From the NCBI GenBank assembly GCA_029858505.1, contig JAOUEW010000004.1, positions 2,520 through 66,519 on the forward strand: DNA of 64,000 nucleotides, in the 5' to 3' direction. The notes beneath the pieces were generated by a model. That model did no database searches. It saw only the letters and a list, made by a program, of their open reading frames with translations, and had not been told where the DNA came from. Numbering within the stretch: position 1 is the stretch's first letter; the number at the start of each line of letters is the position of its first letter. The DNA is from Deltaproteobacteria bacterium. Lineage in GTDB: Bacteria > SAR324 > JACQKK01. The translations under genes and the position numbers were made by a program. Of this stretch, positions 3,735 through 63,300 are shown one piece after another.

Positions 3735-3990
3735 TGTCCAACCGTAGCTCGAAGCCTTCGGTTATTCTGTTCAACCGTTTGGATGAGAAGACCGAACGGA
3801 AGCAGGGCATAACCTTTCGGCGTTGTGTTGTTCCCGAACAGCACCCCTCCCTGGCGGCTTCGCCGCCTGTCCCTCCCCATTCGGAGAGGGACCATGCTCG
3901 AATCCAATGGATTCTGATTTTATCCGTTCGGAATACATGGGCTGGACGGAAGCAGGGCATAACCTTTCGGCGTTGCGTACCGGGATGCCC
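3735..3990. repeat. Composite copy of the intergenic repeat family with internal 30-nt exact direct duplication
   Basis: Modules 'gctcgaagccttcggttattctgttcaaccgtt', 'ccgaacggaagcagg', 'ccctccccattcggagaggga', 'gctcgaatccaatgg', 'ccgttcgg'. The 30-mer 'acggaagcagggcataacctttcggcgttg' occurs at 3796-3825 and again at 3936-3965. ORFs 3730..4083(-) and 3779..4126(+) are artefacts of this repeat. Confidence 0.7.
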
Positions 3991-4743: not shown

Positions 4744-6132
4744 CTACAACCGATTGATGCCGTTCAGGGCGGCCACCCGGTAGCCTTCGGAAAAGGTGGG
4801 GTAGTTGTACACGCTGTCGATAAAGTATTCGATGGTCCCTTCATGGGCCATCACCGCCTGGCCAATGTGAATCAGGTCCGTGGCGTAGTCGCCCAGAATA
4901 TGCACTCCCAACAACTTCAGGGTATCGCGGTGGAACAGCAGCTTCATCCGCCCGGTGGTGGTGCCCATGATTTGCCCCCGGGCCAGCTCTTTGTAGGTGG
5001 CGGCACCCACCTCGTAGGGAATTTTGGCGCGGGTCAGGTCTTCCTCGGTGGCCCCCACGGTGGAGATTTCTGGAATGGTGTAAATGCCGGTGGGGATTAA
5101 ATTGAAACCGGGGTTATCCACCGGTTTGCCGCAGGCGTGCAGGGCGGCCAGGCGGCCCTGGTGCATGGCGGTGGCGGCCAGGGCCGGAAAGCCGATGACG
5201 TCTCCCACGGCGTAGATGTGGGGCACGGCGGTTTGAAACTGCGTGTTTACCTCCAATTGGTGGCGCTTGTTCACGGTAAGCCCCGCTTTGTCTAGGCATA
5301 GTTCGCGGGTGTTGCCGGTGCGCCCGTTGGCGAACAGCAGGTAATCGCTTTTCAGGGCCTTGCCCGACTCCATTTGGGCGTACACGTTTTCACTGTCATG
5401 CTCCACGCCGGTCAGGGTTTCGCCCAGGCGCAGGCGAATGCCCGCCTCGCGCATCAGGTAGGTGAGCATGTTGGCGATTTCCAGGTCTAAAAAATCCAGC
5501 ACGGTCATGCGGGGGTTGACCAAGTTCACCTTCACCCCCAGGTTGGAAAAAATCGTGGCGTACTCGCAGGCGATGACCCCGGCCCCAATGATGGTGAGGG
5601 TTTTGGGCACCTGGTGCAGGCCCAAGATGGTGTCGGCGTCCAACACCCTGGGGTTGGAGAAATCCAGCCATTCGGGGCGGTAGGGAGAGGACCCCGTGGC
5701 GATGATGATGTGCTCGGCCCGGATTTCCTCCGTGCCGGCCCCCCCGGCCAGGTTCACCCGCAGGGTGTGGGGGTCTTCAAAGGAAGCCACCCCGTTGAGG
5801 TAATCCACCTTGTTGCGCTCCAGGTTGCGTTCCAGCCGGTCGGTGAGAGAGAGGGTGGTGGCCCGGCGGCGGTGCATCAGGCGGTCAATAGAAAGATCGT
5901 GGTCCAACACAATGTTGATGCCGTAAATGGCCCGCTGCCGGGTGAGGGCAATGTATCGAACGCTTTCCCGTAGGGTTTTGCTGGGAATGGTGCCGGTGTG
6001 CAGGCAGCCCCCGCCGGGAAGGTTTTTTTCCACCACCAGCACGGTTTTTCCCAGTTTGGCGGCTTGAATGGCGGCCTTTTCGCCGCCGGGGCCAGATCCA
6101 ATCACCAACAGGTCATAGGTTTTCGCTGCCAT
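4744..6132 (-). CDS. sthA: Soluble pyridine nucleotide transhydrogenase (Si-specific NAD(P)+ transhydrogenase)
   Basis: Start MAAKTYDLLVIGSGPGG at 6130-6132; FAD motif GSGPGG, redox motif GGGCLHTGTIPSK, C-terminal ...YRVAALNGINRL closely parallels E. coli SthA over the whole length. Confidence 0.9.
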   Translation of the reverse strand: MAAKTYDLLVIGSGPGGEKAAIQAAKLGKTVLVVEKNLPGGGCLHTGTIPSKTLRESVRYIALTRQRAIYGINIVLDHDLSIDRLMHRRRATTLSLTDRLERNLERNKVDYLNGVASFEDPHTLRVNLAGGAGTEEIRAEHIIIATGSSPYRPEWLDFSNPRVLDADTILGLHQVPKTLTIIGAGVIACEYATIFSNLGVKVNLVNPRMTVLDFLDLEIANMLTYLMREAGIRLRLGETLTGVEHDSENVYAQMESGKALKSDYLLFANGRTGNTRELCLDKAGLTVNKRHQLEVNTQFQTAVPHIYAVGDVIGFPALAATAMHQGRLAALHACGKPVDNPGFNLIPTGIYTIPEISTVGATEEDLTRAKIPYEVGAATYKELARGQIMGTTTGRMKLLFHRDTLKLLGVHILGDYATDLIHIGQAVMAHEGTIEYFIDSVYNYPTFSEGYRVAALNGINRL

Positions 6133-18004: not shown

Positions 18005-18185
18005 TTCCATTACCCGCTGGGCATCCCCTCCCCGGGCTATACAGATGGGAAGGGGAATCGCTCGAATCCGCAATGTTATGCGCTTGCTTCCGTTCAGTCT
18101 TCAAGCAACAGAACAGTTGAATTGAATAACCGATGGCTTCGAGCATTGCCCCTCTCTACGGCAGAGGGGCAGCCCGCGCTAGCGG
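18005..18185. repeat. Copy of intergenic repeat family
   Basis: 'cccctccccgggctatacagatgggaagggg' hairpin, 'gctcgaatccgcaatgttatgcgcttgcttccgttcag', 'ccgatggcttcgag', 'cccctctctacggcagagggg'; sits between convergent genes. Confidence 0.65.
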
Positions 18186-33597: not shown

Positions 33598-33870
33598 CTA
33601 TACACCCCGTCCCATCCTTTCCCCTCGCTGTTTCTCCCTGTACTCGAATCCATCGGCTATTCTGTTCAGCCGTTCGGTTGGTGAAAACTACACGGAAGCA
33701 ACACCCAAACGCAATCGAACGCCCCCTCTCTTCGGGAGAGGGGGGTGAGGTCTAATCAAGCCGATAACTTTTCGGATTCATGCTGTATTTCCCTCCACGA
33801 AGGGGAGGGGATGCCCCCACAGGGGGCAGGGGAGGGGTGCTTCTGGAGAGGGGCCAAACGTGTGAGCGGC
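33598..33870. repeat. Long composite copy of intergenic repeat family
   Basis: 'ctcgaatccatcggctattctgttcagccgttcgg...acggaagcaacacccaaacgcaatcgaacg ccccctctcttcgggagagggggg tgaggtctaatcaagcc...tttccctccacgaaggggaggggatgcccccacagggggcaggggagggg' matches 55455-55800 nearly base-for-base. Confidence 0.75.
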
Positions 33871-35924: not shown

Positions 35925-36170
35925 TCACCCATCGGGACCTCAACCCCCGCCCCCCTCTCCCGAGGAGAGGGGGAGTTCAATGGCGTTTGGGCGTTGCTTA
36001 CTTCCGCCCAGTCTTTGTTTCCGAACGGATGATTCGAATACCCGATGGCTTCGCGAATTTCCCCTCCCTGATTGGGGAGGGGATGCCCGCAGGGCAGGGG
36101 AGAGGTGTGATTGGAGGGGGCAGGGGGGAGAGGTGCTGGGGGAGAGGCCCTGGGCGCCCCATGGGCGGGG
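35925..36170. repeat. Copy of intergenic repeat family (inverted orientation relative to 55500 copy)
   Basis: 'cccccctctcccgaggagaggggg', 'gttcaatggcgtttgggcgttgcttacttccg' (reverse complement of 55520 'acggaagcag..cccaaacgccattgaac'), 'ccgaacggatgattcgaatacccgatggcttcgcgaa', 'cccctccctgattggggaggggatgcccgcagggcagggga'. Confidence 0.7.
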
Positions 36171-36171
36171 A

Positions 36172-37194
36172 TTAAATTTCGTGGCAGGCGGCCCAGTGGG
36201 CCGGTTGAATTTCTCGCCAGGGGGGGGGCGTGCCGCGGCAATGCTCCCGGGCCAGGGGGCAGCGGGGGTGAAAGGCGCACCCAGGGGGAGCATTGGCCGG
36301 GTCGGGGACTTCTCCCCCCAGCAGTGTGCGGGGAAGGCCAGTGCGCCGGGGGGCCACCGCAGGGTCGGCGGAGGGCACCGCCGCCAGCAGGGCCTGGGTG
36401 TAAGGGTGGCGGGGCCGGGAGAACAGTTCTTCACGGGGGGCCAGTTCCGCCAGCCGCCCCAGGTACATCACCGCCACCCGGTGGGCCAGGTGCCGCACCA
36501 CCGCCAAGTCGTGGGAGATAAACAAGTAGGCCATCCCCCGTTCGGCCTGAAGCCCCGCCAGCAGGTTCACCACCTGGGCCTGGATCGACACATCCAGGGC
36601 AGACACGGGCTCATCGGCCACAATCAGCGCCGGGTCCAGGGCCAGGGCCCGGGCAATGCCCACCCGTTGGCGTTGGCCCCCAGAAAACTGGTGAGGGTAC
36701 ATGGTCCTTTGGTCTGGGCGCAGCCCCACCCGTTGGAACAGGGCCGCCACCCGGTCTTTCCGTTCCGCCGGGGTGCCGATGCGGTGAATCGCCAGGGGTT
36801 CTTCCACCATGGCTCCGGCGGTCATGCGGGGGTTCAGGCTGGCGTAGGGGTCTTGGAAAATCATCTGCATGCGGCGGCGGTGGGGGACCAGGTCTCGCGC
36901 TGACAGCCCCGACAGGTCGGTGCCCTCCAGCAGCACCCGGCCAGCGGTGGGGGGAATGAGCCTGAGCACCATGCGCCCGGTGGTGGTTTTGCCGCAGCCC
37001 GATTCCCCCACCAGGGCCAGGGTTTCTCCCCGGTTCAGGGCAAAGCTCACCCCGTCGACCGCTTTGACCCAGCGGTGGGGTTTGCCCCACAGGTTTCCCC
37101 CCAGGGGAAAGTGCCGGGAGAGCTGCTCCACCGTGAGCAACGGGGCGGCGTTGGGGGAAGAATTATTTTGTTCGAGGGGGTGGTTCATCGACAT
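36172..37194 (-). CDS. oppF: Oligopeptide/dipeptide ABC transporter ATP-binding protein
   Basis: 340 aa; Walker A GESGCGKTT, ABC signature LSGGQRQRV, C-terminal oligopeptide-ABC extension with Cys-rich motif (CAFHPRCP). Confidence 0.85.
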   Translation of the reverse strand: MSMNHPLEQNNSSPNAAPLLTVEQLSRHFPLGGNLWGKPHRWVKAVDGVSFALNRGETLALVGESGCGKTTTGRMVLRLIPPTAGRVLLEGTDLSGLSARDLVPHRRRMQMIFQDPYASLNPRMTAGAMVEEPLAIHRIGTPAERKDRVAALFQRVGLRPDQRTMYPHQFSGGQRQRVGIARALALDPALIVADEPVSALDVSIQAQVVNLLAGLQAERGMAYLFISHDLAVVRHLAHRVAVMYLGRLAELAPREELFSRPRHPYTQALLAAVPSADPAVAPRRTGLPRTLLGGEVPDPANAPPGCAFHPRCPLAREHCRGTPPPWREIQPAHWAACHEI

Positions 37195-38235
37195 TTACTC
37201 AGCCGGGTGGTGGCAGGCGGTGAAATGGGCGGGAGCTCGTTGCGCGGGCTCATGGGTGGGGCCTGGGTCCTGGCGGCAGGCGTGGTCGGCCTGGGGGCAG
37301 CGGGGGGCAAAGGCGCACCCAGGGGGCCGGGCCCCCGGCGGGGGTACCAAACCTGGAATCTCGGCCAGGGAAGTTTGGTTCCGGCCGGGCCGTGCCCCCA
37401 GCAACCCACGGGTGTAGGGGTGCCGGGGGCGGGCGAACAACTCATCCACCGGAGCTTCCTCCACCACCCGCCCGGCGTACATCACCGCCACCCGTTGGGC
37501 CTGCTGGGCCACCACCCCCAGGTCGTGGGTAATGAACAGCACCGCCGTGCCGTTCTCTCGTTGCAGGGCTTCCATCAAGTCCAAAATCTGGGCCTGGATG
37601 GTCACATCCAAGGCGGTGGTGGGCTCGTCGGCCAGCAGCAGGGCCGGGCGGCAGGCCAGGGCCATGGCAATCATCACCCGCTGGCGCATGCCCCCCGACA
37701 ACTGATGGGGGTACTCGGCGGCCACCCGGGCCGGGTCGGGGATGCGCACATGGGCCAATTCGGCCTGGGCCCGCTCCCAGGCTTCTTTCCGGGAAAGCCC
37801 CTGGTGCAGCCGCAGCACTTCGGCCACCTGTTTGCCCACGGTGTGCACCGGGTTCAGGGCGGTCATGGGCTCTTGAAAAATCATGGACACCCGGTTGCCC
37901 CGCACCTGGCGCAGGGCGGCCCCGGAAAGGGCCAGCAGGTTTTGCCCTTCGAACATGGCCTTCCCCCTGGCGCGGGCGCCCTCGGGCAGCAGCCCCAGCA
38001 GGGCCAGGGCCGTCAGGCTCTTGCCGCAGCCCGACTCCCCCACCAGGGCCAGGGTCTCCCCCGGCACGATGGTCAGGTTGACGTCCTCCACGGCGGCCCG
38101 GGGGCCCGCCTGCCCCGGCAGAGGAGGAAAATCCACCCCCAGGTGTTCTACCCGCAGCAGGGGCGGCGCGGAACCCGGACCGGGTTCAGGGGCCGTGATG
38201 AACGGAGCAGCCGTTGGAGAGGAGAGGGTGGGCAT
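37195..38235 (-). CDS. oppD: Oligopeptide/dipeptide ABC transporter ATP-binding protein
   Basis: 346 aa; Walker [11 protein letters not shown], signature [10 protein letters not shown]-terminal CAFAPRCP motif; stop abuts oppF start. Confidence 0.85.
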
Positions 38236-50458: not shown

Positions 50459-50800
50459 TGCTCAGGGGGGGGCTGTTCAAATGCTTGTCGTTCGAAGCCA
50501 TCGGTGATTCCCTCCCTCCAACCACACCTCTCCCCTGCCCTGCGGGCATCCCCTCCCCAGTCAGGGAGGGGAAAGACTTGAATCCACCGGTTTCTATTTT
50601 CATCCGTTCTGAAAACATAGACTGGACGGAAGCAAGCGCATCACTCATCGGATTCGAGCCATTCCCCCCTCCCTGATTGGGGAGGGGGGCAGGGGGGAGA
50701 GGTTCTGTTGGGACAACGCTCGATGCCAACGGTTATTCATCCGTTCGGTTCATAAAAACTAGACGGAAGCAATCCATTCACCGGCTTCGAGGAACGGGTG
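50459..50800. repeat. Composite copy of intergenic repeat family (two ggacggaagcaa units)
   Basis: 'cgttcgaagccatcggtgattcc', 'cccctgccctgcgggcatcccctccccagtcagggagggg', 'cttgaatccaccggtttctattttcatccgttctg...ggacggaagcaagcgcatcactcatcggattcgagcc', 'cccccctccctgattggggaggggggcagggggg', 'ccgttcggttcataaaaactagacggaagcaatcc'. Confidence 0.75.
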
Positions 50801-55399: not shown

Positions 55400-55860
55400 A
55401 GTTCTTGGGTTCAGGCCAAACGATTTTCCTCCCCCCTTTTCCTCCCCCCTCTGCGTCCCCATCCCGTTACTCGAATCCACCGGATATTCTCTTCAACCAT
55501 TCGGAAAACAAAGATTGGACGGAAGCAGGCAATGCCCAAACGCCATTGAACGCCCCCTCTCTTCGGGAGAGGGGGCGGGGGGTGAGGTCTCATCAAGCGA
55601 AGAATGGACCTCACCCCGCCCGCTGGCGCGGGCTGCCCCTCTCCCGATGGAGAGGGACAATACTCGAATCCATCGGTTCTTCTATCCAACCGTTCGGAAA
55701 GCATACACTGATCGGCAGCAAGCGCATGACATTTCGGATGCGAGTTGTTCCCCTCCACGAAGGGGAGGGGATGCCCCCATCAGGGGGCAGGGGAGGGGTG
55801 TTGTTGGGATGCCCGCAGGGCAGGGATGATTGGGGGAGAGAAACAACACGGCAGTGCGGC
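55400..55860. repeat. Largest composite copy of intergenic repeat family (>=3 nested units plus hairpin spacers)
   Basis: Units starting 'actcgaatccaccgg' (55463) and 'actcgaatccatcgg' (55661), each with '...ccRttcgg...ggacggaagca / cggcagcaagcgcat...'; hairpins 'ccccctctcttcgggagaggggg', 'cccctctcccgatggagaggg', 'cccctccacgaaggggaggggatgcccccatcagggggcaggggagggg', 'gggatgcccgcagggcaggg'. Confidence 0.75.
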
Positions 55861-59105: not shown

Positions 59106-60098
59106 ATGACTGCTGAAACCAAGTCGTATCCTCCGGCCGCCCCCCGTTGGGCCGAGTTTCCCCGGCCCATTGTGTGCCTGGCCCCCATGGATGGCTACAC
59201 CGATTCTCCCTTTCGGCGGGTGGTGCGCCGGGTAAACCCAGGGGTGGTGCTGTTCAGCGAGTTTACCTCGGCGGAGGGATTTTTGCGCTCGGGCAAGGTC
59301 AAGCAGCGGTTGGCCTTTCAAGCCGATGAGCAGCCCTATTTCGTGCAGTTGTTTGGCAGCGACCCGGCGGCCTTTGCCGAAGCGGCCCGGGAACTGGAGC
59401 AGCAGGGGGTCACCGGCATCGACATCAACATGGGCTGCCCGGCGAAAAAAATCGTGGCCTCTCAGCATGGCAGCGGCCTGATGAAAGACGTGGCCGCCGC
59501 CGCCCGCATCGTGGAACGGGTGGCGGGGGCCTGCGCCCTTCAGGTTTCGGTCAAGACCCGCCTGGGCTGGTCCGATGCCTCGGGGCTGGTGCCCTTTGCC
59601 CGGGCCCTGACCTCCGCCGGGGCATCGCTGGTCACCATTCATGGGCGCACTTACAACCAGGCTTTCCATGGCCAAGCCGACTGGGAACCCATTTATCGGC
59701 TGAAAGAAGCCCTGCCCGTGCCGGTGATTGGCAATGGAGACGTGGCTTGCCATGCCGACGGCTTGGCCCGGCTGGGCAATCTGGACGGCTTCATGATCGG
59801 CCGGGCCGCCATTGGCAACCCCTGGGTGTTCGACCCCGCCTGGCGGGAAGAGAACCCCCCCAGTTGGGCCGCCAAAGCCCGGCTGATGGAGGCGCACTTT
59901 CAATGGATGCTGGAAGACCGGCCCCTGCGCCGGGCCGTGCCAGAATTCAGAAAGCATTTGGCGGGGTACCTGAAGGGCTTTCCCATGGCCCGCCGGGTGA
60001 AAACCGAGTTGCTGACCCTGACGGACCCCGACGATATTTTCCGCCGAATGGAGGGCTTGGCCCAATTGGACGGCCCGGCGGAACGGCTGGCGGGGTAA
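59106..60098 (+). CDS. dusB: tRNA-dihydrouridine synthase
   Basis: Start MTAETKSYPP (ATG 59106); 'PMDGYTDSPFRR', 'NMGCPAKKI' Dus FMN-binding motifs. Confidence 0.85.
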   Translation: MTAETKSYPPAAPRWAEFPRPIVCLAPMDGYTDSPFRRVVRRVNPGVVLFSEFTSAEGFLRSGKVKQRLAFQADEQPYFVQLFGSDPAAFAEAARELEQQGVTGIDINMGCPAKKIVASQHGSGLMKDVAAAARIVERVAGACALQVSVKTRLGWSDASGLVPFARALTSAGASLVTIHGRTYNQAFHGQADWEPIYRLKEALPVPVIGNGDVACHADGLARLGNLDGFMIGRAAIGNPWVFDPAWREENPPSWAAKARLMEAHFQWMLEDRPLRRAVPEFRKHLAGYLKGFPMARRVKTELLTLTDPDDIFRRMEGLAQLDGPAERLAG

Positions 60099-60100
60099 CC

Positions 60101-60823
60101 ATGGGCAAGCACCGCCGCCTGGCCCAGCTGGAGGACACCGCCCTGGCCATGGCCCAGGCCCTGGAACCCCTGGTGCTGCCCCGCCGCCTGGAAAAAATGC
60201 GGGCCGTGCTGGCCACCCGCAGCGACCACGTGGTGTTTGCCTTCGAAGCCATGGTGGACCCCCACAATCTTAGCGCCGCCCTGCGCAGCCTCGACGCCTT
60301 CTCTTTCCAAGACGTGTACCTGGTGCGCTATCAGGGCAAGACCGGCTTATCCAAGGGGGTAACCCGGGGGGCCGACAAATGGCTGTCGGTGCACGCCATG
60401 GAATCCACGGCGGAACTGGCCGTCCGGCTGAAGGAGCGGGGATACCGCCTGGCCGCCAGCCACCTGCGCCACGACGCGGTGGATTTGGAGCAGATGGATT
60501 TTTCTCAACCCACGGCGCTGCTGTTTGGCAACGAACACGCCGGGGTGGGGCCCGAAGCCCTGGCCCTGGCAGACCTGGTGTTCCGCATTCCCATGCGGGG
60601 GTTTGTGGAAAGCTTCAACCTGTCGGTGTCGGCGGCCCTGGCGGCCCAAACCGCCCGCCGAGAAATAGACCGGCTGGGGGCGGAAGACCAGGCCCCCTGG
60701 CGGCTGGACCCCCTGCGGCGAAACATGCTGTATGCCGCCTGGCTGCGGCGCCACGTGCGGCGGGGAGAGGAAATTCTAGCGAAGAAGGGCATAGACCACC
60801 GGCTGATTCCGCTGGACCCGTGA
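60101..60823 (+). CDS. SpoU/TrmH-family tRNA/rRNA 2'-O-methyltransferase
   Basis: 240 aa; ATG 60101 three nt after the dus stop; SPOUT motifs 'LLFGNEHAGV', 'IPMRGFVESFNLSVSAAL'. Confidence 0.8.
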   Translation: MGKHRRLAQLEDTALAMAQALEPLVLPRRLEKMRAVLATRSDHVVFAFEAMVDPHNLSAALRSLDAFSFQDVYLVRYQGKTGLSKGVTRGADKWLSVHAMESTAELAVRLKERGYRLAASHLRHDAVDLEQMDFSQPTALLFGNEHAGVGPEALALADLVFRIPMRGFVESFNLSVSAALAAQTARREIDRLGAEDQAPWRLDPLRRNMLYAAWLRRHVRRGEEILAKKGIDHRLIPLDP

Positions 60824-60877
60824 ACGGGCGGGGTGAAAATAATCTGAATTCGCCGAACACGAACGAGGAGAGAACGA

Positions 60878-61540
60878 ATGGAAGTGACGGACTTGCTTTT
60901 TCGATTGATTCTGCTGTTTCTGCCCGGCATCGTGGCGTTTATCCTGGTGGATAAACTGACTGTTCACAAAAAATTCGAATTGGATGAAAAAGTTTTATAT
61001 TCGCTCATCCTTGGTTTGTTCTCTTATCTGTTATACACGCTCGGCCTTATCGCGTTTCAATCTCTTGGCTGGGCAGACATTTCTCGCAACCCCTCGTTTT
61101 TCTCCGCGGTATCCAACACCAGTACGCCCATTGATTTTTGGGAAATCGCGGTTTGTATTCCGGTTTCTGTGGTCACCGGATTTTCGGTCTCCTATGCTAT
61201 CAGCCATCGTTGGGTTTTTCGGCTGGGGAAGTTTTTACGGGTTACCCAAAAACATGGGAGCCCCGGCGCGTTGGAATATCTCATCAACAGCAATGCCCAA
61301 TGGGTGGTGATTCGAGATGCGGAAAGAGATCTGATGTATTATGGCAAAATACTGCTGTGGTCTAACCCGGATGAGCGGGATGAAATTTGTTTAACGGAGG
61401 TAAAGGTTTATCGAAATTCCACTGGAAATTTTTTGTACGACACACCGACTTTGCTAGTCATGGCAGATTGGAGTAAACTAAGTTTTGAGTTCCCTGCAAT
61501 TACGAAGAACCTAAACGCAAAAAGGAACGGGAAAAAATGA
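60878..61540 (+). CDS. Low-GC islet gene 1: 3-TM membrane protein with soluble C-terminal domain, unknown family
   Basis: 220 aa; RBS gaggag; body GC ~45% vs 66% flanks; TM helices LLFRLILLFLPGIVAFILV, VLYSLILGLFSYLLYTLGLIAF, FWEIAVCIPVSVVTGFSVSYAI; C-terminal ~110-aa soluble domain; stop overlaps the next start (ATGA). Confidence 0.65.
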   Translation: MEVTDLLFRLILLFLPGIVAFILVDKLTVHKKFELDEKVLYSLILGLFSYLLYTLGLIAFQSLGWADISRNPSFFSAVSNTSTPIDFWEIAVCIPVSVVTGFSVSYAISHRWVFRLGKFLRVTQKHGSPGALEYLINSNAQWVVIRDAERDLMYYGKILLWSNPDERDEICLTEVKVYRNSTGNFLYDTPTLLVMADWSKLSFEFPAITKNLNAKRNGKK

Positions 61541-61749
61541 GAAAGACCAGCGAATCCCCAGTTGTCACCCAAGTAAGGAAGGGCACTAAAGCAACCTTTG
61601 GTAATGCCGCTGATGTTGGCTTCGTTGTTCTTCAAGAAGGAAATATCATCAAAGGAGGAGTGAATCCTCCCTCGAATACACCCCGCCCCAATTGGACGCC
61701 TTCAGGGCAGGGAATCCCTCAAACGGCCAACCCGCCCAAAGGAAAGTAA
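61537..61749 (+). CDS. Low-GC islet gene 2: 70-aa hypothetical protein
   Basis: MRKTSESPVVTQVRKGTKATFGNAADVGFVVLQEGNIIKGGVNPPSNTPRPNWTPSGQGIPQTANPPKGK; translationally coupled to gene 1; Pro/Gly-rich basic tail. Confidence 0.5.
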   Translation: MRKTSESPVVTQVRKGTKATFGNAADVGFVVLQEGNIIKGGVNPPSNTPRPNWTPSGQGIPQTANPPKGK

Positions 61750-61823
61750 ACACATTCGTTTTTCTCTCTCTTTCACGGCAGAAAGGTGTCCTTCCGCCGC
61801 GCATTCACTCGAATATCCAATCC

Positions 61824-63206
61824 ATGAAAATCATCGTTCAGAAATTTGGCGGGACCAGCGTGGGCAGCGGCGAGCGCCTGCGTAACGTGGCAGGCATCAT
61901 TCAAGCCACCCTGAAAACCCACCCGGTCATTGCCGTGGTAAGCGCCATGAGCGGCACCGTGAAGGCCGAGGGCACCACCAGCCAGATCATCCTGGCCAGC
62001 GAGCAGGCCCTGGCGGGCGCCAGCTACCAAGAGCCGTTGGAGAACATCCGCCGCACCCACGTGAAGGCCATTGGCGAAGCGGTGCAGGGGAAGGCCGCCA
62101 GCCAAGAACTGGCCGAGGCGGTGGAACAAGAACTGACCCGGCTGGAACTGGTGCTGGGGGCGGTGAAGACCCTGGGAGAAATTTCTCCCCGCTCGTTAGA
62201 TATGCTGCTTTCTGGCGGAGAGCGCCTGAGCGCCCGCCTGCTGGCCGGCACCCTGGCCGACATGGGCACCGAAGCGGTGTACATGGATTTATCCGAAGTG
62301 GTGGCGCCGGAGGAAAAAGAGGTGAACCCCGGCTTCTTTTTGCGAATGCAGCACCTGATGGCCGAGTACTGCCGCCCCATGGGGGGCAAGGTTCCGGTGG
62401 TCACCGGGTTTTTTGGGCTGGTGCCGGGGGGCATTCTCAAAGCCGTGGGGCGGGGCTATACCGACTTCACCACGGCGCTCATTTCCGCCGGGCTGGGTCG
62501 CCAAGCCGTGGAAGAAATGCAGGTGTGGAAGGAGGTGGACGGCATTTTTACCGCCGACCCCCGCAAGGTGCCCACGGCCAGGGTGCTGGCCGCCATTTCT
62601 CCCAACGAGGCCGCCGAGCTCACCTACTTCGGCAGCGAGGTGCTGCACCCCTTTACCATGGAGCGGGTGGTGTCGGCGGAAATTCCCATCCGCATCAAAA
62701 ACACGTTCTCGCCCCAAGGGCCTGGCACCATTATTTTGCCCAAGCATGAAGACAAAACCCAACGGGTCACGGCGGTTACCGCCAAGCGCAGCATTACCAT
62801 CGTCACCATTCACTCCAACCGCATGTTCAACGCCTACGGCTTTCTGGCCCGGGTGTTCAACACCCTGGACCGCCACGGGGTTATCGTGGACCTGGTGAGC
62901 ACCAGCGAGGTCAGCGTGTCGTTCTCGGTGGAGCGGGCCGACTCGGTGGAGGCCACCGCCAAGGACCTGAAAGAGTTTGGCGACGTGAAGGTGGAACGGG
63001 GCCGGGCCATTCTCTCCATGGTGGGGGAAGGCATGAAGTTCTCGGTGGGCACCGCCGGGCAAATGTTCTCCACCCTGGCCGCCGCTGGCATCAACATCGA
63101 GATGATTTCCCAGGGCGCTTCCGAGATCAACATCTCTTGCGTCATCAAAGAAGATGACGTGCCCAAGGGGCTCACCGCCCTGCACAAGGCGTTTTTAGAG
63201 GGGTGA
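61824..63206 (+). CDS. lysC: Aspartate kinase
   Basis: Start MKIIVQKFGGTSVGS (ATG 61824); amino-acid kinase fold with two C-terminal ACT domains; only 74 nt separate it from the islet. Confidence 0.92.
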   Translation: MKIIVQKFGGTSVGSGERLRNVAGIIQATLKTHPVIAVVSAMSGTVKAEGTTSQIILASEQALAGASYQEPLENIRRTHVKAIGEAVQGKAASQELAEAVEQELTRLELVLGAVKTLGEISPRSLDMLLSGGERLSARLLAGTLADMGTEAVYMDLSEVVAPEEKEVNPGFFLRMQHLMAEYCRPMGGKVPVVTGFFGLVPGGILKAVGRGYTDFTTALISAGLGRQAVEEMQVWKEVDGIFTADPRKVPTARVLAAISPNEAAELTYFGSEVLHPFTMERVVSAEIPIRIKNTFSPQGPGTIILPKHEDKTQRVTAVTAKRSITIVTIHSNRMFNAYGFLARVFNTLDRHGVIVDLVSTSEVSVSFSVERADSVEATAKDLKEFGDVKVERGRAILSMVGEGMKFSVGTAGQMFSTLAAAGINIEMISQGASEINISCVIKEDDVPKGLTALHKAFLEG

Positions 63207-63300
63207 AGTGGAGGGGGGGGAATGGCTCGCACCCGACAAGTTAGGCTCTTGTTGCCGTTCAGTTGATATATTCCGAACGGGAGAATAGAACGAACCGGTG
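63207..63300. repeat. Short degenerate copy of intergenic repeat family
   Basis: 'ggctcgcacccgacaag', 'gccgttcagttgatatattccgaacgg' (ccgttcag/ccgaacgg palindrome). Confidence 0.5.

Follow-up and report, generated by a model that had tools for sequence, protein, structure and literature searches.

A widespread two-gene module of a DUF6338 membrane protein and a conserved microprotein, acquired horizontally at a trmH-lysC junction

Introduction

Several described systems each resemble part of the two-gene module analyzed here, in which a gene for a membrane protein (gene 1) is followed by a gene for a microprotein (gene 2). HigBA, HicAB, and membrane-effector abortive-infection systems are, like the module, compact coupled pairs with a disordered small second protein, are mobile, and are found among toxin-antitoxin (TA) and defense genes; in HigBA and HicAB, the toxin gene comes first. 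No toxin, antitoxin, or PADLOC family, however, shows homology to either protein of the module. MscS functions as a homo-oligomeric ring, and its cytoplasmic middle domain has an Sm-like fold. It shows the order of parts that is predicted for gene 1, namely three transmembrane (TM) helices in an N-out/C-in orientation and then a cytoplasmic Sm-like beta domain, but gene 1 is much smaller, lacks the C-terminal alpha-beta domain, and is mobile and patchily distributed. Kinship with MscS was considered and rejected, as gene 1 gave neither a Pfam MS_channel match nor a structural match. Sm, LSm, and Hfq proteins are soluble, unlike gene 1, which also lacks an Sm2 motif and detectable sequence homology to them. 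Their tails and chaperones (the Hfq C-terminal tail, the RG/Pro-rich tails of Sm proteins, and pICln) invite comparison with gene 2, except that in the module the "tail" is a separate gene product.

Two abortive-infection proteins and one operon can also be compared with the module. AbiP of Lactococcus and PdpSau of an S. aureus prophage combine, as gene 1 is predicted to do, an N-terminal membrane anchor with a small cytoplasmic beta-barrel and are carried on mobile elements; they function, or have been suggested to function, once phage DNA has entered the cell (PMC13064643, PMC10127798). Compared by description, they have one TM helix, an OB-like basic barrel, and no microprotein partner, whereas the barrel of gene 1 is acidic and predicted to be Sm-like. 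In "operon 9" of P. stutzeri, a DUF6338 gene is accompanied by three proline-rich small proteins that were detected by mass spectrometry and that the authors considered species-specific (PMC10433244). As in the module, the DUF6338 gene comes first and is followed by basic proline-rich ORFs, here of <50 aa (PMC10433244), but these small proteins lack the EG..KKGG half of the motif that we describe for gene 2.

Here, we show that a low-GC islet in a 64-kb window (the whole stretch of DNA that was analyzed) is a horizontally acquired copy of a widespread, conserved, self-contained two-gene module.

Results

A low-GC islet lies between trmH and lysC

The islet and its flanks comprise the following features, in window coordinates:
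60101..60823, + strand: gene for a SpoU/TrmH-type RNA methyltransferase, the upstream flank, outside the module (PF00588 SpoU_methylase, E 9.6e-29)
60833..60844, + strand: left copy of a 12-nt direct repeat, GTGAAAATAATC, which mimics the lysC start codon region (10/12 identical to 61824-61835)
60865..60870, + strand: Shine-Dalgarno-like GAGGAG, 7 nt 5' of the gene 1 ATG (sequence reading)
60878..61540, + strand: gene 1, 220 aa, a divergent DUF6338-family protein, predicted to reside in the inner membrane (PF19865 match)
61537..61749, + strand: gene 2, 70 aa, a basic, disordered, Pro/Gly-rich microprotein (leave-one-out HMM, E 1.6e-6)
61750..61823, + strand: spacer from gene 2 to lysC, with no terminator-like site on the + strand
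61824..63206, + strand: lysC (aspartokinase), the downstream flank, outside the module (AA_kinase, E 5.2e-36, and ACT domains)

The domain matches of the two flanking genes, SpoU_methylase on one side and AA_kinase plus ACT on the other, agree with the placement of the islet between a trmH-like gene and lysC in the first-pass annotation. No stretch of the window is lower in GC than 60834-61749, at 0.456 compared with 0.604 on average (SD 0.043, z = -3.3; 870-nt stretches). Measured over 200 nt at a time, GC is 0.64-0.70 at 60000-60800, falls to 0.42-0.51 at 60800-61700, and recovers inside lysC, while GC3 is 0.51 for gene 1 and 0.46 for gene 2, compared with 0.77-0.83 for dus, trmH, and lysC. 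The drop from ~66% to ~45% noted in the first pass is real, and the immediate neighbors are indeed at ~0.65, but the mean of the window is 0.60 rather than 0.66.

The low-GC segment is bracketed by a direct repeat that matches at 10 of 12 positions, GTGAAAATAATC at 60833 and ATGAAAATCATC at the lysC start (61824), so that the first 12 nt of lysC (61824-61835) are the right copy. A 10/12 match to the lysC-start 12-mer was reached by 31 of 20000 shuffles of the left flank and, in a broader all-against-all repeat test, by 37 of 2000 shuffles. The GC drop begins at the left copy (60833..60844), which is the probable left insertion boundary. We found no sigma-70-like promoter within 60600-62000; hence, transcription of the islet may read through from trmH.

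The window also contains an intergenic repeat family of 60-85 nt, CTCGAATCC...CCGTTCGG...ACGGAAGCA, and fragments of this family had been thought to lie at both islet flanks. Our searches do not support this. The best local score of either flank against the family is 17, while random 74-nt pieces of the window average 21, and the best alignments were equaled by 196/300 and 212/300 shuffles. A 15-mer quoted earlier in support of the idea has no islet match within 3 mismatches. Flanking repeat elements were rejected on the basis of this mismatch search and of local alignment against all family copies, which did no better than shuffles, and on the same grounds we find no support for the suggestion that the islet inserted into, or was mobilized with, a repeat element of the window.

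The islet was acquired horizontally

The dus-trmH-lysC order is conserved in relatives, and we compared their trmH-lysC junctions with that of the window. All 12 of the closest LysC-bearing relatives lack both genes. The relatives compared share 50-72% LysC identity, and LysC proteins of 58-72% identity come from SAR324, "Myxococcaceae," and Lambdaproteobacteria MAGs. Two SAR324 genomes (L003 and L009) have nothing between trmH and lysC, and four relatives carry unrelated cargo there: an XhoI-type restriction-modification (R-M) system in L008, while the cargo of L005, L006, and L014 consists of other genes. TrmH scans of genome and metagenome contigs returned no closer relative with the exact empty site. 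The low GC and GC3, the lack of these genes in the relatives, and the direct repeat of the lysC start that brackets the islet uphold the earlier proposal of horizontal acquisition, and the islet is lineage-specific. The insertion would have occurred ~10 nt past the trmH stop and immediately before lysC, at a junction that accepts foreign cargo in related genomes.

A phage origin was considered and rejected: tblastn gave no hit in 50,697 phage records, and none was obtained in IMG/VR with two family members. One IMG/VR contig (L150) has the module. Structural searches of BFVD gave no convincing match.

Gene 1 encodes a DUF6338 protein with a predicted Sm/LSm-fold barrel

The first-pass annotation recognized no family for either protein, but gene 1 exceeds the Pfam gathering score for DUF6338 (PF19865; 28.8 bits against 26.5, E 1.1e-6), the match covering profile positions 11-110 of 205 only. 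A protein identical to gene 1 is named "DUF6338 family protein" by NCBI, and PF19865 was matched by 49 of 70 aligned gene 1 relatives. This is a large family: at E<=1e-3, matches comprise at least 848 clusters (50% identity) from many phyla. In tblastn, annotated DUF6338 plasmid genes from Vibrio, Agrobacterium, and Acidiphilium cover query residues 16-204, 37-211, and 47-206, respectively (24-29% identity, E 1e-18 to 2e-6); the alignments to these canonical genes thus extend through the TM part into the barrel, and the same microprotein lies downstream of them.

A structure model built from a 12-sequence alignment (mean pLDDT 73.7) divides gene 1 into two parts:
60884..61204, + strand: membrane part, residues 3-109, with three predicted TM helices (AF2 helices 3-27, 35-62, and 87-109)
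61262..61489, + strand: predicted cytoplasmic Sm/LSm-fold small beta-barrel, residues 129-204, one helix plus five strands, acidic

The three long N-terminal helices and the C-terminal beta domain of this model match the three TM helices and soluble domain that had been read from the sequence. An LFLPG motif is conserved in TM1, where P16 and G17 are invariant. In a positive-inside count over 70 homologs, loop 1 is at net +1.2 and the post-TM3 segment at net +3.4, while the N-terminus and loop 2 are negative, and this charge bias predicts an N-out, C-in topology.

The modeled beta domain has an N-terminal helix and then five strongly bent antiparallel strands that can be superposed on Sm proteins, and its best structural matches are Sm, LSm, and Hfq. 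We regard the Sm assignment as a structural one, drawn from the model: gene 1 has no LSM or Hfq Pfam match, a profile of the barrel domain found no Sm protein among PDB sequences at E<=10, and the conserved positions include only an Sm1-like G...SD pattern, the Sm2-type RG[DN] not being conserved. By analogy with other Sm domains, the barrel probably assembles into a ring. Since the barrel is acidic (net -6.3) and the partners are basic (+1 to +14), the two are electrostatically complementary. A NisI-like immunity domain was dismissed, the barrel-profile match (E 0.08) not being significant.

Given Sm, LSm, and Hfq rings, which bind RNA, as the best structural matches of the barrel, gene 1 could be a membrane-anchored nucleic-acid binder of the AbiP/PdpSau type. 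An Sm-like ring would then bind invader RNA or ssDNA at the membrane, with the microprotein as its accessory or inhibitory tail, comparable to the C-terminal tails of Hfq and Sm proteins. PdpSau likewise joins an N-terminal TM helix to an OB-like cytoplasmic domain (PMC10127798), and the defense-rich contexts described below would suit such a role. We nevertheless judge it distinctly unlikely. The barrel carries a strong negative charge and the PdpSau domain a positive one; a conserved RG[DN] and any sequence match to Sm or Hfq are missing; and AbiP and PdpSau each consist of a single gene product with one TM helix.

Gene 2 belongs to a conserved microprotein family

Translational coupling and a small, basic, Pro/Gly-rich product had both been proposed for gene 2, and both stand: the two ORFs overlap by ATGA (61537-61540), and the protein has a net charge of +6 and 26% Pro+Gly. 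No Pfam domain was detectable, and the AF2 model (pLDDT 57) is without secondary structure. An HMM built from the 16 partner ORFs of other loci found gene 2 at E 1.6e-6. In this leave-one-out search, the best unrelated sequence among 27,658 six-frame ORF fragments scored E 0.47, and there was no false positive. Two features lie within the gene:
61630..61713, + strand: conserved motif, residues 32-59, LQEGNIIKGGVNPPSNTPRPNWTPSGQG (alignment of 17 partners)
61649..61675, no strand assigned: hairpin-capable stretch, GGAGGA-gtgaa-TCCTCC (terminator scan, minus strand)

Across the 17 partners, the motif reads h-x-[ED]-G-x-h-x-[KR]-G-G-x-N-x2-P-x3-[RKP]-P-x2-P-x2-G-Q-G. The hairpin-capable stretch is formed by the Gly-Gly and Pro-Pro codons of gene 2 and is probably a by-product of the coding sequence. 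We also considered the reverse, that pairing of an SD-like GGAGG with CCUCC at the RNA level is the cause of the KGG..PP pattern, and rejected it, as the complementarity is lost in L088 and the conserved E, K, N, RP, and GQG would be left unexplained. Nor did we accept the P. stutzeri small proteins as part of the family; in position, size, and composition they resemble it, and they carry a partial GGVN...RP...PPPP, but they are not significant with the partner HMM.

If gene 2 were a chance ORF, the islet would consist of one membrane gene, an orphan. ORFs of this kind escape most gene callers, and a word-index protein search returned the identical sequence only, as this reading would have it. 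Against it stand the gap between E 1.6e-6 for gene 2 and E 0.47 for the next unrelated ORF, the conservation of position, strand, and motif in 17/17 loci across phyla, and mass-spectrometric evidence for the analogous ORFs of P. stutzeri (PMC10433244). The chance-ORF reading is effectively refuted. Judged by sequence conservation, gene 2 is a member of a genuine microprotein family, most of which is unannotated.

The two genes travel together

We retrieved 17 loci via gene 1 alone, from Bacillota, Alpha- and Gammaproteobacteria, Cyanobacteriota, Lentisphaerota, and unclassified MAGs. A partner ORF lies immediately 3' of the gene 1 homolog in 17/17 of them, often with an overlap of 4-8 nt. In a reverse search of metagenomes with a DNA pattern of the motif, 96 of 120 fetched loci were true motif copies. 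Among the 61 copies with at least 800 nt of upstream DNA, a DUF6338 gene accompanies the motif in 37, in every case on the same strand, and the two alignments are a median of 26 nt apart. The other ~39% of copies with enough upstream DNA have no DUF6338 neighbor; hence, the motif may be read by something else. Apparent Rosetta-stone fusions, in which longer homologs seemed to end in the partner motif, turned out to be off-frame readings of the partner ORF (in L089, for example, the partner lies in another frame that overlaps an over-extended gene call) and are not counted as evidence. In-frame fusions of gene 1 and partner, which would speak for a physical association of the two, amount to 1 weak case in 217 proteins. 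Taken together, the sequence comparisons support a self-contained, co-inherited module of a membrane protein and its small partner.

Copies of the module occur on five plasmids, and in a Vibrio cassette array the whole pair is one cassette. The partner gene is duplicated in tandem in L087, which has two copies. Three copies are solitary and lie among housekeeping genes: that of the window, L001 (in an lpx operon), and L087 (between the H+-PPase and ArgRS genes). Such locations would suit a physiological membrane device, for example a small MscS-like channel or a stress sensor with the microprotein as a stoichiometric subunit, as would the MscS-like architecture of gene 1 and the abundance of the P. 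stutzeri small proteins in ordinary culture (PMC10433244). We hold this reading to be improbable.

Defense and mobility genes lie near many copies of the module

About 12 of the 17 module contexts have defense, TA, or mobility genes. The combinations include type I R-M with TIR/SEFIR, GmrSD, and TraG; DUF4145/Ymh/Eco57I with a relaxase; AbiTii with an integrase; an integrase with HicBA and TIR; a caspase with a nuclease; and TIR with a caspase. In the Vibrio array, the module sits among Phd/YefM, CcdAB, HigB, YoeB, and RelE/ParE cassettes. A PADLOC scan of 127 neighbors returned R-M I, ThsB/TIR, bSEFIR, caspase, PsyrTA, DpdF, and PDC-S66. In a qualitative comparison, the neighborhoods matched 320 PADLOC families versus 112 for the control set, though the families are redundant and the control set is not strictly comparable. 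For the two proteins themselves, PADLOC-DB v2.0.0 gave 0 families at E<=1, and PHROGs and NCBIfam models gave no match to either. Neighborhoods so rich in defense genes and mobile genetic elements (MGEs) fit, through guilt by association, a putative toxin/immunity, abortive-infection, or defense role, as the first-pass annotation had suggested.

The same surroundings could be those of an addiction cassette of the toxin-antitoxin type with no anti-phage role. A labile microprotein would neutralize a membrane protein that does harm on its own; since cells that lose the cassette would die, this would explain why it has spread on plasmids, within integron cassettes, and in the form of solitary islets. 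The copies among the Vibrio TA cassettes, beside HicBA, beside PIN, and on five plasmids are in keeping with this, as are the compact coupled layout with the putative toxin first and the disorder of the partner. The partner lacks, however, the DNA-binding domain typical of type II antitoxins; the presence of its motif on unrelated phage-like proteins would be left unexplained; and tandem duplication of the partner gene, as in L087 and P. stutzeri (PMC10433244), is unusual for antitoxins. On balance, we view an addiction cassette as rather unlikely.

The gene 2 motif recurs on phage-like proteins

The motif of gene 2 is also present on unrelated phage-like proteins, among them a MazG-like pyrophosphatase (phrog_3301, E 1.6e-35), a nucleoside deoxyribosyltransferase-like protein, and others. 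One possible meaning is that the membrane-tethered Sm-type ring is a reader of the EG-x-h-KKGG-x-N/polyproline/GQG motif on many phage and MGE proteins, with the microprotein as guard or decoy; this would be an immune or exclusion principle not recognized before. Displacement or capture would then lead to abortive infection at the membrane or to sequestration of phage enzymes. We put this forward as a speculative and rather unlikely reading.

The pair might instead combine a microprotein that is, or yields, a proline-rich antimicrobial or signaling peptide with a membrane protein that serves as an immunity or export factor. KGG resembles a double-glycine cleavage site and TPRP the cores of PrAMPs; L087 has two putative peptide genes in tandem and P. 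stutzeri has three; and the P. stutzeri authors raised an antimicrobial role and noted DUF6338 in biosynthetic clusters (PMC10433244). The barrel profile also has its weak match to the nisin immunity protein NisI, at the non-significant E-value given above. The 17 contexts, however, contain no C39 peptidase/ABC exporter or modification enzyme of the kind that accompanies double-glycine bacteriocins and RiPPs (by Pfam families and annotation). Moreover, the microprotein has no signal peptide, the barrel is predicted to be cytoplasmic, and the motif is found inside intracellular phage enzymes. We thus rate a peptide-immunity pair as very improbable.

Discussion

The reading that we favor, tentatively and short of an even chance, is that the two genes form a conflict module, with the microprotein as both ligand and regulator of a membrane-tethered Sm ring. 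Gene 1 would span the inner membrane three times and hold an acidic Sm/LSm-type barrel just beneath it, and gene 2 would be synthesized in step with gene 1 via the ATGA overlap. The gene 2 motif (EG-x-h-x-KGG-x-N, polyproline, and GQG) would be the ligand of the barrel and would keep the membrane protein in a resting state. Loss of the microprotein, or its displacement by invader proteins that carry the same motif, would throw the switch, whereupon the Sm ring would perturb the membrane or retain motif-bearing phage proteins at it. Such a conflict module might work as an exclusion device or be abortive-infection-like or toxin-antitoxin-like. The horizontal origin, the fold, the charge-based topology, the obligate pairing of the genes, the motif and its presence on phage-like proteins, and the neighborhoods rich in defense genes and MGEs come from the analyses above; that a ring forms, that the barrel binds the motif, and that the pair is toxic or acts against phages are elements that we infer.

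Whatever its function, DUF6338 gains a predicted fold and topology. A microprotein family is now defined whose ORFs gene callers skip or overwrite by wrong-frame extension of the upstream gene. In this lineage, the trmH-lysC junction is an integration hotspot where defense cargo is taken up. A portable motif common to the microprotein and to phage proteins unrelated to it points to a protein-protein interaction not yet described; if the reader model were true, this motif would be the mark of a hub, likewise undescribed, through which diverse phages interact. The defense repertoire would gain a new architecture if the pair is a conflict system, that of a membrane-bound Sm-fold protein with an obligate, mostly unannotated microprotein.

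Insertion of the islet at the trmH-lysC junction

The islet comprises two genes between housekeeping neighbors:

60101-60823, + strand: SpoU/TrmH methylase, upstream neighbor
60878-61540, + strand: gene 1, ORF of 220 aa
61537-61749, + strand: gene 2, ORF of 70 aa, ATGA overlap with gene 1
61824-63206, + strand: lysC, aspartokinase with ACT domains, downstream neighbor

The GC profile and ORF reading agree with the first-pass annotation, which had described a GC drop and two ATGA-coupled ORFs between a trmH-like gene and lysC. In 200-nt windows, GC content is 0.42-0.51 at 60800-61700 versus 0.64-0.70 upstream, and it rises again within lysC. The GC minimum of the window is an 870-nt stretch from 60834 (0.456 versus a mean of 0.604, SD 0.043, z = -3.3), and GC3 is 0.51 and 0.46 in the islet genes versus 0.77-0.83 in dus, trmH, and lysC. 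A scan of the islet found neither a sigma-70-like promoter nor a + strand terminator; hence, the islet may be transcribed by read-through from trmH.

Repeat-family fragments had also been proposed at the flanks. These are absent: the alignment of the repeat family to the islet flanks was reached by 196 of 300 and 212 of 300 shuffles. The low-GC segment is instead bracketed exactly by the two copies of a 12-nt direct repeat, GTGAAAATAATC at 60833-60844 and ATGAAAATCATC at 61824-61835 (10/12 identical), the left copy mimicking the start of lysC (GTG AAA ATA ATC versus ATG AAA ATC ATC). A 10/12 match to the lysC-start 12-mer was attained in 31 of 20,000 left-flank shuffles (37 of 2,000 in a broader test). 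This repeat suggests a short target duplication or microhomology at insertion.

We sampled LysC relatives at one genome per species and checked gene order by tblastn. The nearest are SAR324, "Myxococcaceae," and Lambdaproteobacteria MAGs (58-72% identity), with a further relative, L014, at ~50%; TrmH scans of the genome-contig and metagenome-contig collections yielded none closer. The dus-trmH-lysC order was found in six relatives, and homologs of the islet genes are absent from all six. Only ~100 nt separate trmH from lysC in L003 and L009 (both SAR324), while four loci carry other cargo:

L005, 4071-4799, - strand: unrelated 242-aa protein
L006, 2366-4513, - strand: 715-aa secreted DUF7151/collagen-repeat protein
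L014, 2452-4929: 825-aa membrane protein
L008, 1733-3351: XhoI-type restriction enzyme (PF04555, E 6e-82) plus N6/N4 DNA methylase

The comparison with related genomes that the first-pass annotation had proposed thus found the islet absent and the gap empty or otherwise filled. Since relatives have no cargo or different cargo, the trmH-lysC junction is a hotspot for cargo, and this islet is specific to its lineage.

Other repeats in the window

The window contains an intergenic REP- or MITE-like repeat family of ~60-85 nt in about 13 copies (118-174, 271-317, 3740-3805, 3871-3954, 18047-18103, 18111-18157, 33635-33700, 36023-36069, 50551-50634, 50706-50771, 55444-55527, 55637-55720, and 63212-63268), the last directly after the lysC stop codon. 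Its core reads ...CTCGAATCC..GG.T.TTCT.TTCA.CCGTTCGG...ACGGAAGCA, and copies are often paired or inverted, beside G/C-rich hairpins (CCCTCCCC...GGGGAGGG). Separately, 36250-38062 holds two adjacent stretches ~1,014-1,038 nt apart with 73-93% identity across several blocks, suggestive of two paralogous genes in tandem.

Gene 1 encodes a DUF6338 membrane protein with a predicted Sm-fold barrel

Gene 1 had been said to match no recognized family, which does not hold: it matches the N-terminal half of the Pfam DUF6338 model (28.8 bits versus a cutoff of 26.5). Of 70 aligned relatives, 49 also match DUF6338. A word-index search returned three proteins: one, identical, belongs to a "Deltaproteobacteria bacterium" MAG, and the other two are 37-42% identical. 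An exhaustive HMMER search returned 848 clusters at E<=1e-3, 474 of them at E<=1e-10. Judged by these searches, the family is large yet divergent. The 70-member alignment conserves LFLPG in the first helix, G46, Y50, and a C-terminal block (W142, R146, D147, G156, S162, E169, V175, and Y193).

An AlphaFold2 model from a 12-sequence alignment (mean pLDDT 73.7; 83-91 across most C-terminal strands) reproduces the three N-terminal helices and soluble domain noted at first pass. It places long helices at 3-27, 35-62, and 87-109, then two short amphipathic helices, then one helix and five strands at residues 129-204. We assign the modeled cytoplasmic barrel to the Sm fold; this names a fold and does not demonstrate homology, because a sequence profile of the C-terminal domain did not find Sm proteins among PDB sequences. 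The best PDB match of the domain profile (residues 124-207, window 61247-61498) was the nisin immunity lipoprotein NisI (2n2e), not significant at E 0.08, with a suggestive alignment pattern (yxG...SDt...E...vL.eV.Vf). Across the 70 homologs, loop 1 (net +1.2) and the post-TM3 segment (net +3.4) are positive and the N terminus and loop 2 negative, so the positive-inside rule predicts an N-out, C-in topology. By charge counts in the same homologs, the barrel is acidic (net -6.3).

Gene 2 belongs to a family of obligate partner microproteins

Gene 2 had no match in PADLOC, PHROGs, NCBIfam, or Pfam, and a protein search returned only its own sequence. We therefore looked at loci retrieved via gene 1 alone: those of two close homologs, eight more contexts from metagenomes or MAGs, and five plasmids (B. 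cereus pAH187_45, a Vibrio plasmid, Agrobacterium, Acidiphilium pACRY01, and Citrobacter pF217-5). A partner ORF occupies the same position in 17 of 17 distinct loci, the window counted. Gene callers mostly miss this ORF, which commonly overlaps gene 1 by 4-8 nt. When the window copy was withheld from the HMM, gene 2 was still recovered at E 1.6e-6 among 27,658 six-frame ORF fragments (103 loci, 1.05 Mb); the 22 top matches were all partner ORFs, whereas no unrelated fragment scored better than E 0.47. A chance ORF is excluded by these results.

Partners share the motif h-x-[ED]-G-x-h-x-[KR]-G-G-x-N-x2-P-x3-[RKP]-P-x2-P-x2-G-Q-G. They are basic, with a net charge of +1 to +14, and Pro+Gly makes up 20-40% of their residues, bearing out the earlier description of gene 2 as small, basic, and Pro/Gly-rich. 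Modeled alone, the gene 2 protein is coil (pLDDT 57). A hairpin-capable stretch at 61649-61675 (GGAGGA-gtgaa-TCCTCC, SD-like facing anti-SD-like) arises from Gly-Gly and Pro-Pro codons and is probably a coding by-product, since other loci do not conserve the complementarity. Some genomes carry tandem duplications of the partner gene: locus L087 has two copies (5653-5796 and 5844-5996), and P. stutzeri encodes three small proline-rich proteins (see below).

C-terminal tails of longer homologs were considered as fusions and rejected. In locus L089, the partner (5545-5856) lies in another frame, overlapping an over-extended gene call (5001-5786), and tails such as 'EEGRTQSAEHEQRPAP' are off-frame readings of 'KKGGxNPPNTSSxPRP'. 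With only one weak in-frame case among 217 proteins, the partner is nearly always a polypeptide of its own. Gene callers working on high-GC genomes run the DUF6338 ORF across the partner in the wrong frame, creating spurious 'EEGR..P' tails and hiding the microprotein (e.g., proteins P0189, P0009, P0125, and P0068).

The partner motif also occurs outside the module

In a reverse test, we used a degenerate DNA pattern encoding EGxxKKGGxNxxP to scan a metagenome collection. The scan returned 120 loci, 96 of them with a significant partner-HMM match. A DUF6338-family gene was present in 47 of these 96, in every case directly upstream on the same strand (median 26 nt between alignments). Where motif loci had 800 nt or more of upstream DNA, the proportion was 37/61 (61%). 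In the remaining 24, the motif lies at one end of a larger, unrelated protein or in a linker within it. Among the bearers are a MazG-like pyrophosphatase of phage type (phrog_3301, E 1.6e-35), a nucleoside 2-deoxyribosyltransferase-like protein, zinc-ribbon proteins, and small TM proteins; IMG/VR contigs without DUF6338 also carry it, e.g., downstream of a ParB-like gene. Loci with the motif (EG..KKGG.N..P.TPRP.PP.GQG) and no DUF6338 neighbor include:

L249, 258-746
L251, 6278-6775, - strand
L328, 1203-2390
L143, 12737-13222
L312, L287, L341, and others

Because it is present on unrelated phage-like proteins without DUF6338, the partner motif behaves as a portable short linear motif. The module itself had zero matches in 50,697 phage records.

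Many module copies lie among defense and mobility genes

Surroundings of module copies were as follows:

End of a type I R-M operon, then TIR/SEFIR protein, GmrSD, TraG
DUF4145/Hypoth_Ymh on either side, Eco57I and relaxase near
Adjoining AbiTii and integrase
Following integrase and HicBA, TIR protein nearby
Close to transposases and HicA
B. cereus pAH187_45: adjoining caspase and nuclease
Vibrio sp. SCSIO 43009 plasmid (L096, 4962-5754): between two DUF3265 ORFs in a TA-rich cassette array
Following MobF relaxase
Citrobacter plasmid: following a TIR-caspase pair
Ser/Thr kinase and integrase near

PADLOC matches among 127 neighboring ORFs comprised type I R-M, ThsB/TIR, bSEFIR, SAVED-TIR, caspase, PsyrTA, DpdF, mad2, and PDC-S66. 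Among 115 lysC neighbors taken as a control, matches were mostly the single R-M at the L008 hotspot, and the comparison is qualitative. We take the DUF3265 ORFs to mark integron attC sites; lying between two of them, the L096 module seems to form one integron-type cassette, and its neighboring cassettes are toxin-antitoxin pairs. Set in this company, the module might be read as a plain addiction cassette, which we consider unlikely. Three copies, that of the window included, stand alone among housekeeping genes; a physiological MscS-like device, a reading to set beside such copies, is very improbable.

Relation to described systems and a proposed mechanism

Proteogenomics of P. stutzeri detected three proline-rich proteins of 36-47 aa by mass spectrometry (44-114 spectra each; CP036186 2666728-2667116) in an operon with a DUF6338 gene, deemed species-specific by the authors (PMC10433244). 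Supplementary file 3, in which the genes of operon 9 appear, also has DUF1156, SNF2 helicase, and PLD-like entries, which lie ~14 kb upstream (about 2.649-2.652 Mb versus 2.666 Mb) (PMC10433244). The small proteins resemble the partner family in position, size, charge, and a partial GGVN...RP...PPPP pattern, but their match to the partner HMM is not significant. The DUF1156, SNF2, and PLD-like entries may correspond to parts of a DISARM-like set. Apart from this study, we found no mention of DUF6338 in the searchable literature; the family is catalogued yet uncharacterized.

The closest documented functional analogs are AbiP and PdpSau, membrane-anchored abortive-infection proteins. Both have a cytoplasmic nucleic-acid-binding barrel (PMC13064643, PMC10127798), and an AbiP-like nucleic-acid binder is accordingly one reading of the module, though an improbable one.

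The islet is very probably a horizontally acquired, conserved two-gene module, pairing a DUF6338 membrane protein that has an Sm-fold cytoplasmic barrel with an obligate motif-bearing microprotein. What the pair does is more tentative. It may be a conflict module, an unproven possibility that we hold somewhat short of likely, in which the basic microprotein would bind the acidic barrel and so keep the membrane protein inactive at rest. The switch would come on when the microprotein is lost or is displaced by motif-bearing invader proteins. A peptide/immunity pair is very improbable.

We found no description of the Sm fold, the obligate microprotein, the motif, or its presence on phage proteins in the searchable literature or PADLOC v2; none of the systems characterized so far combines these components. 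We rate the module as outside the known kinds of system and infer its function from context only. The pairing of a membrane Sm fold with a microprotein, and the shared motif, would surprise specialists, and the hypotheses are directly testable.
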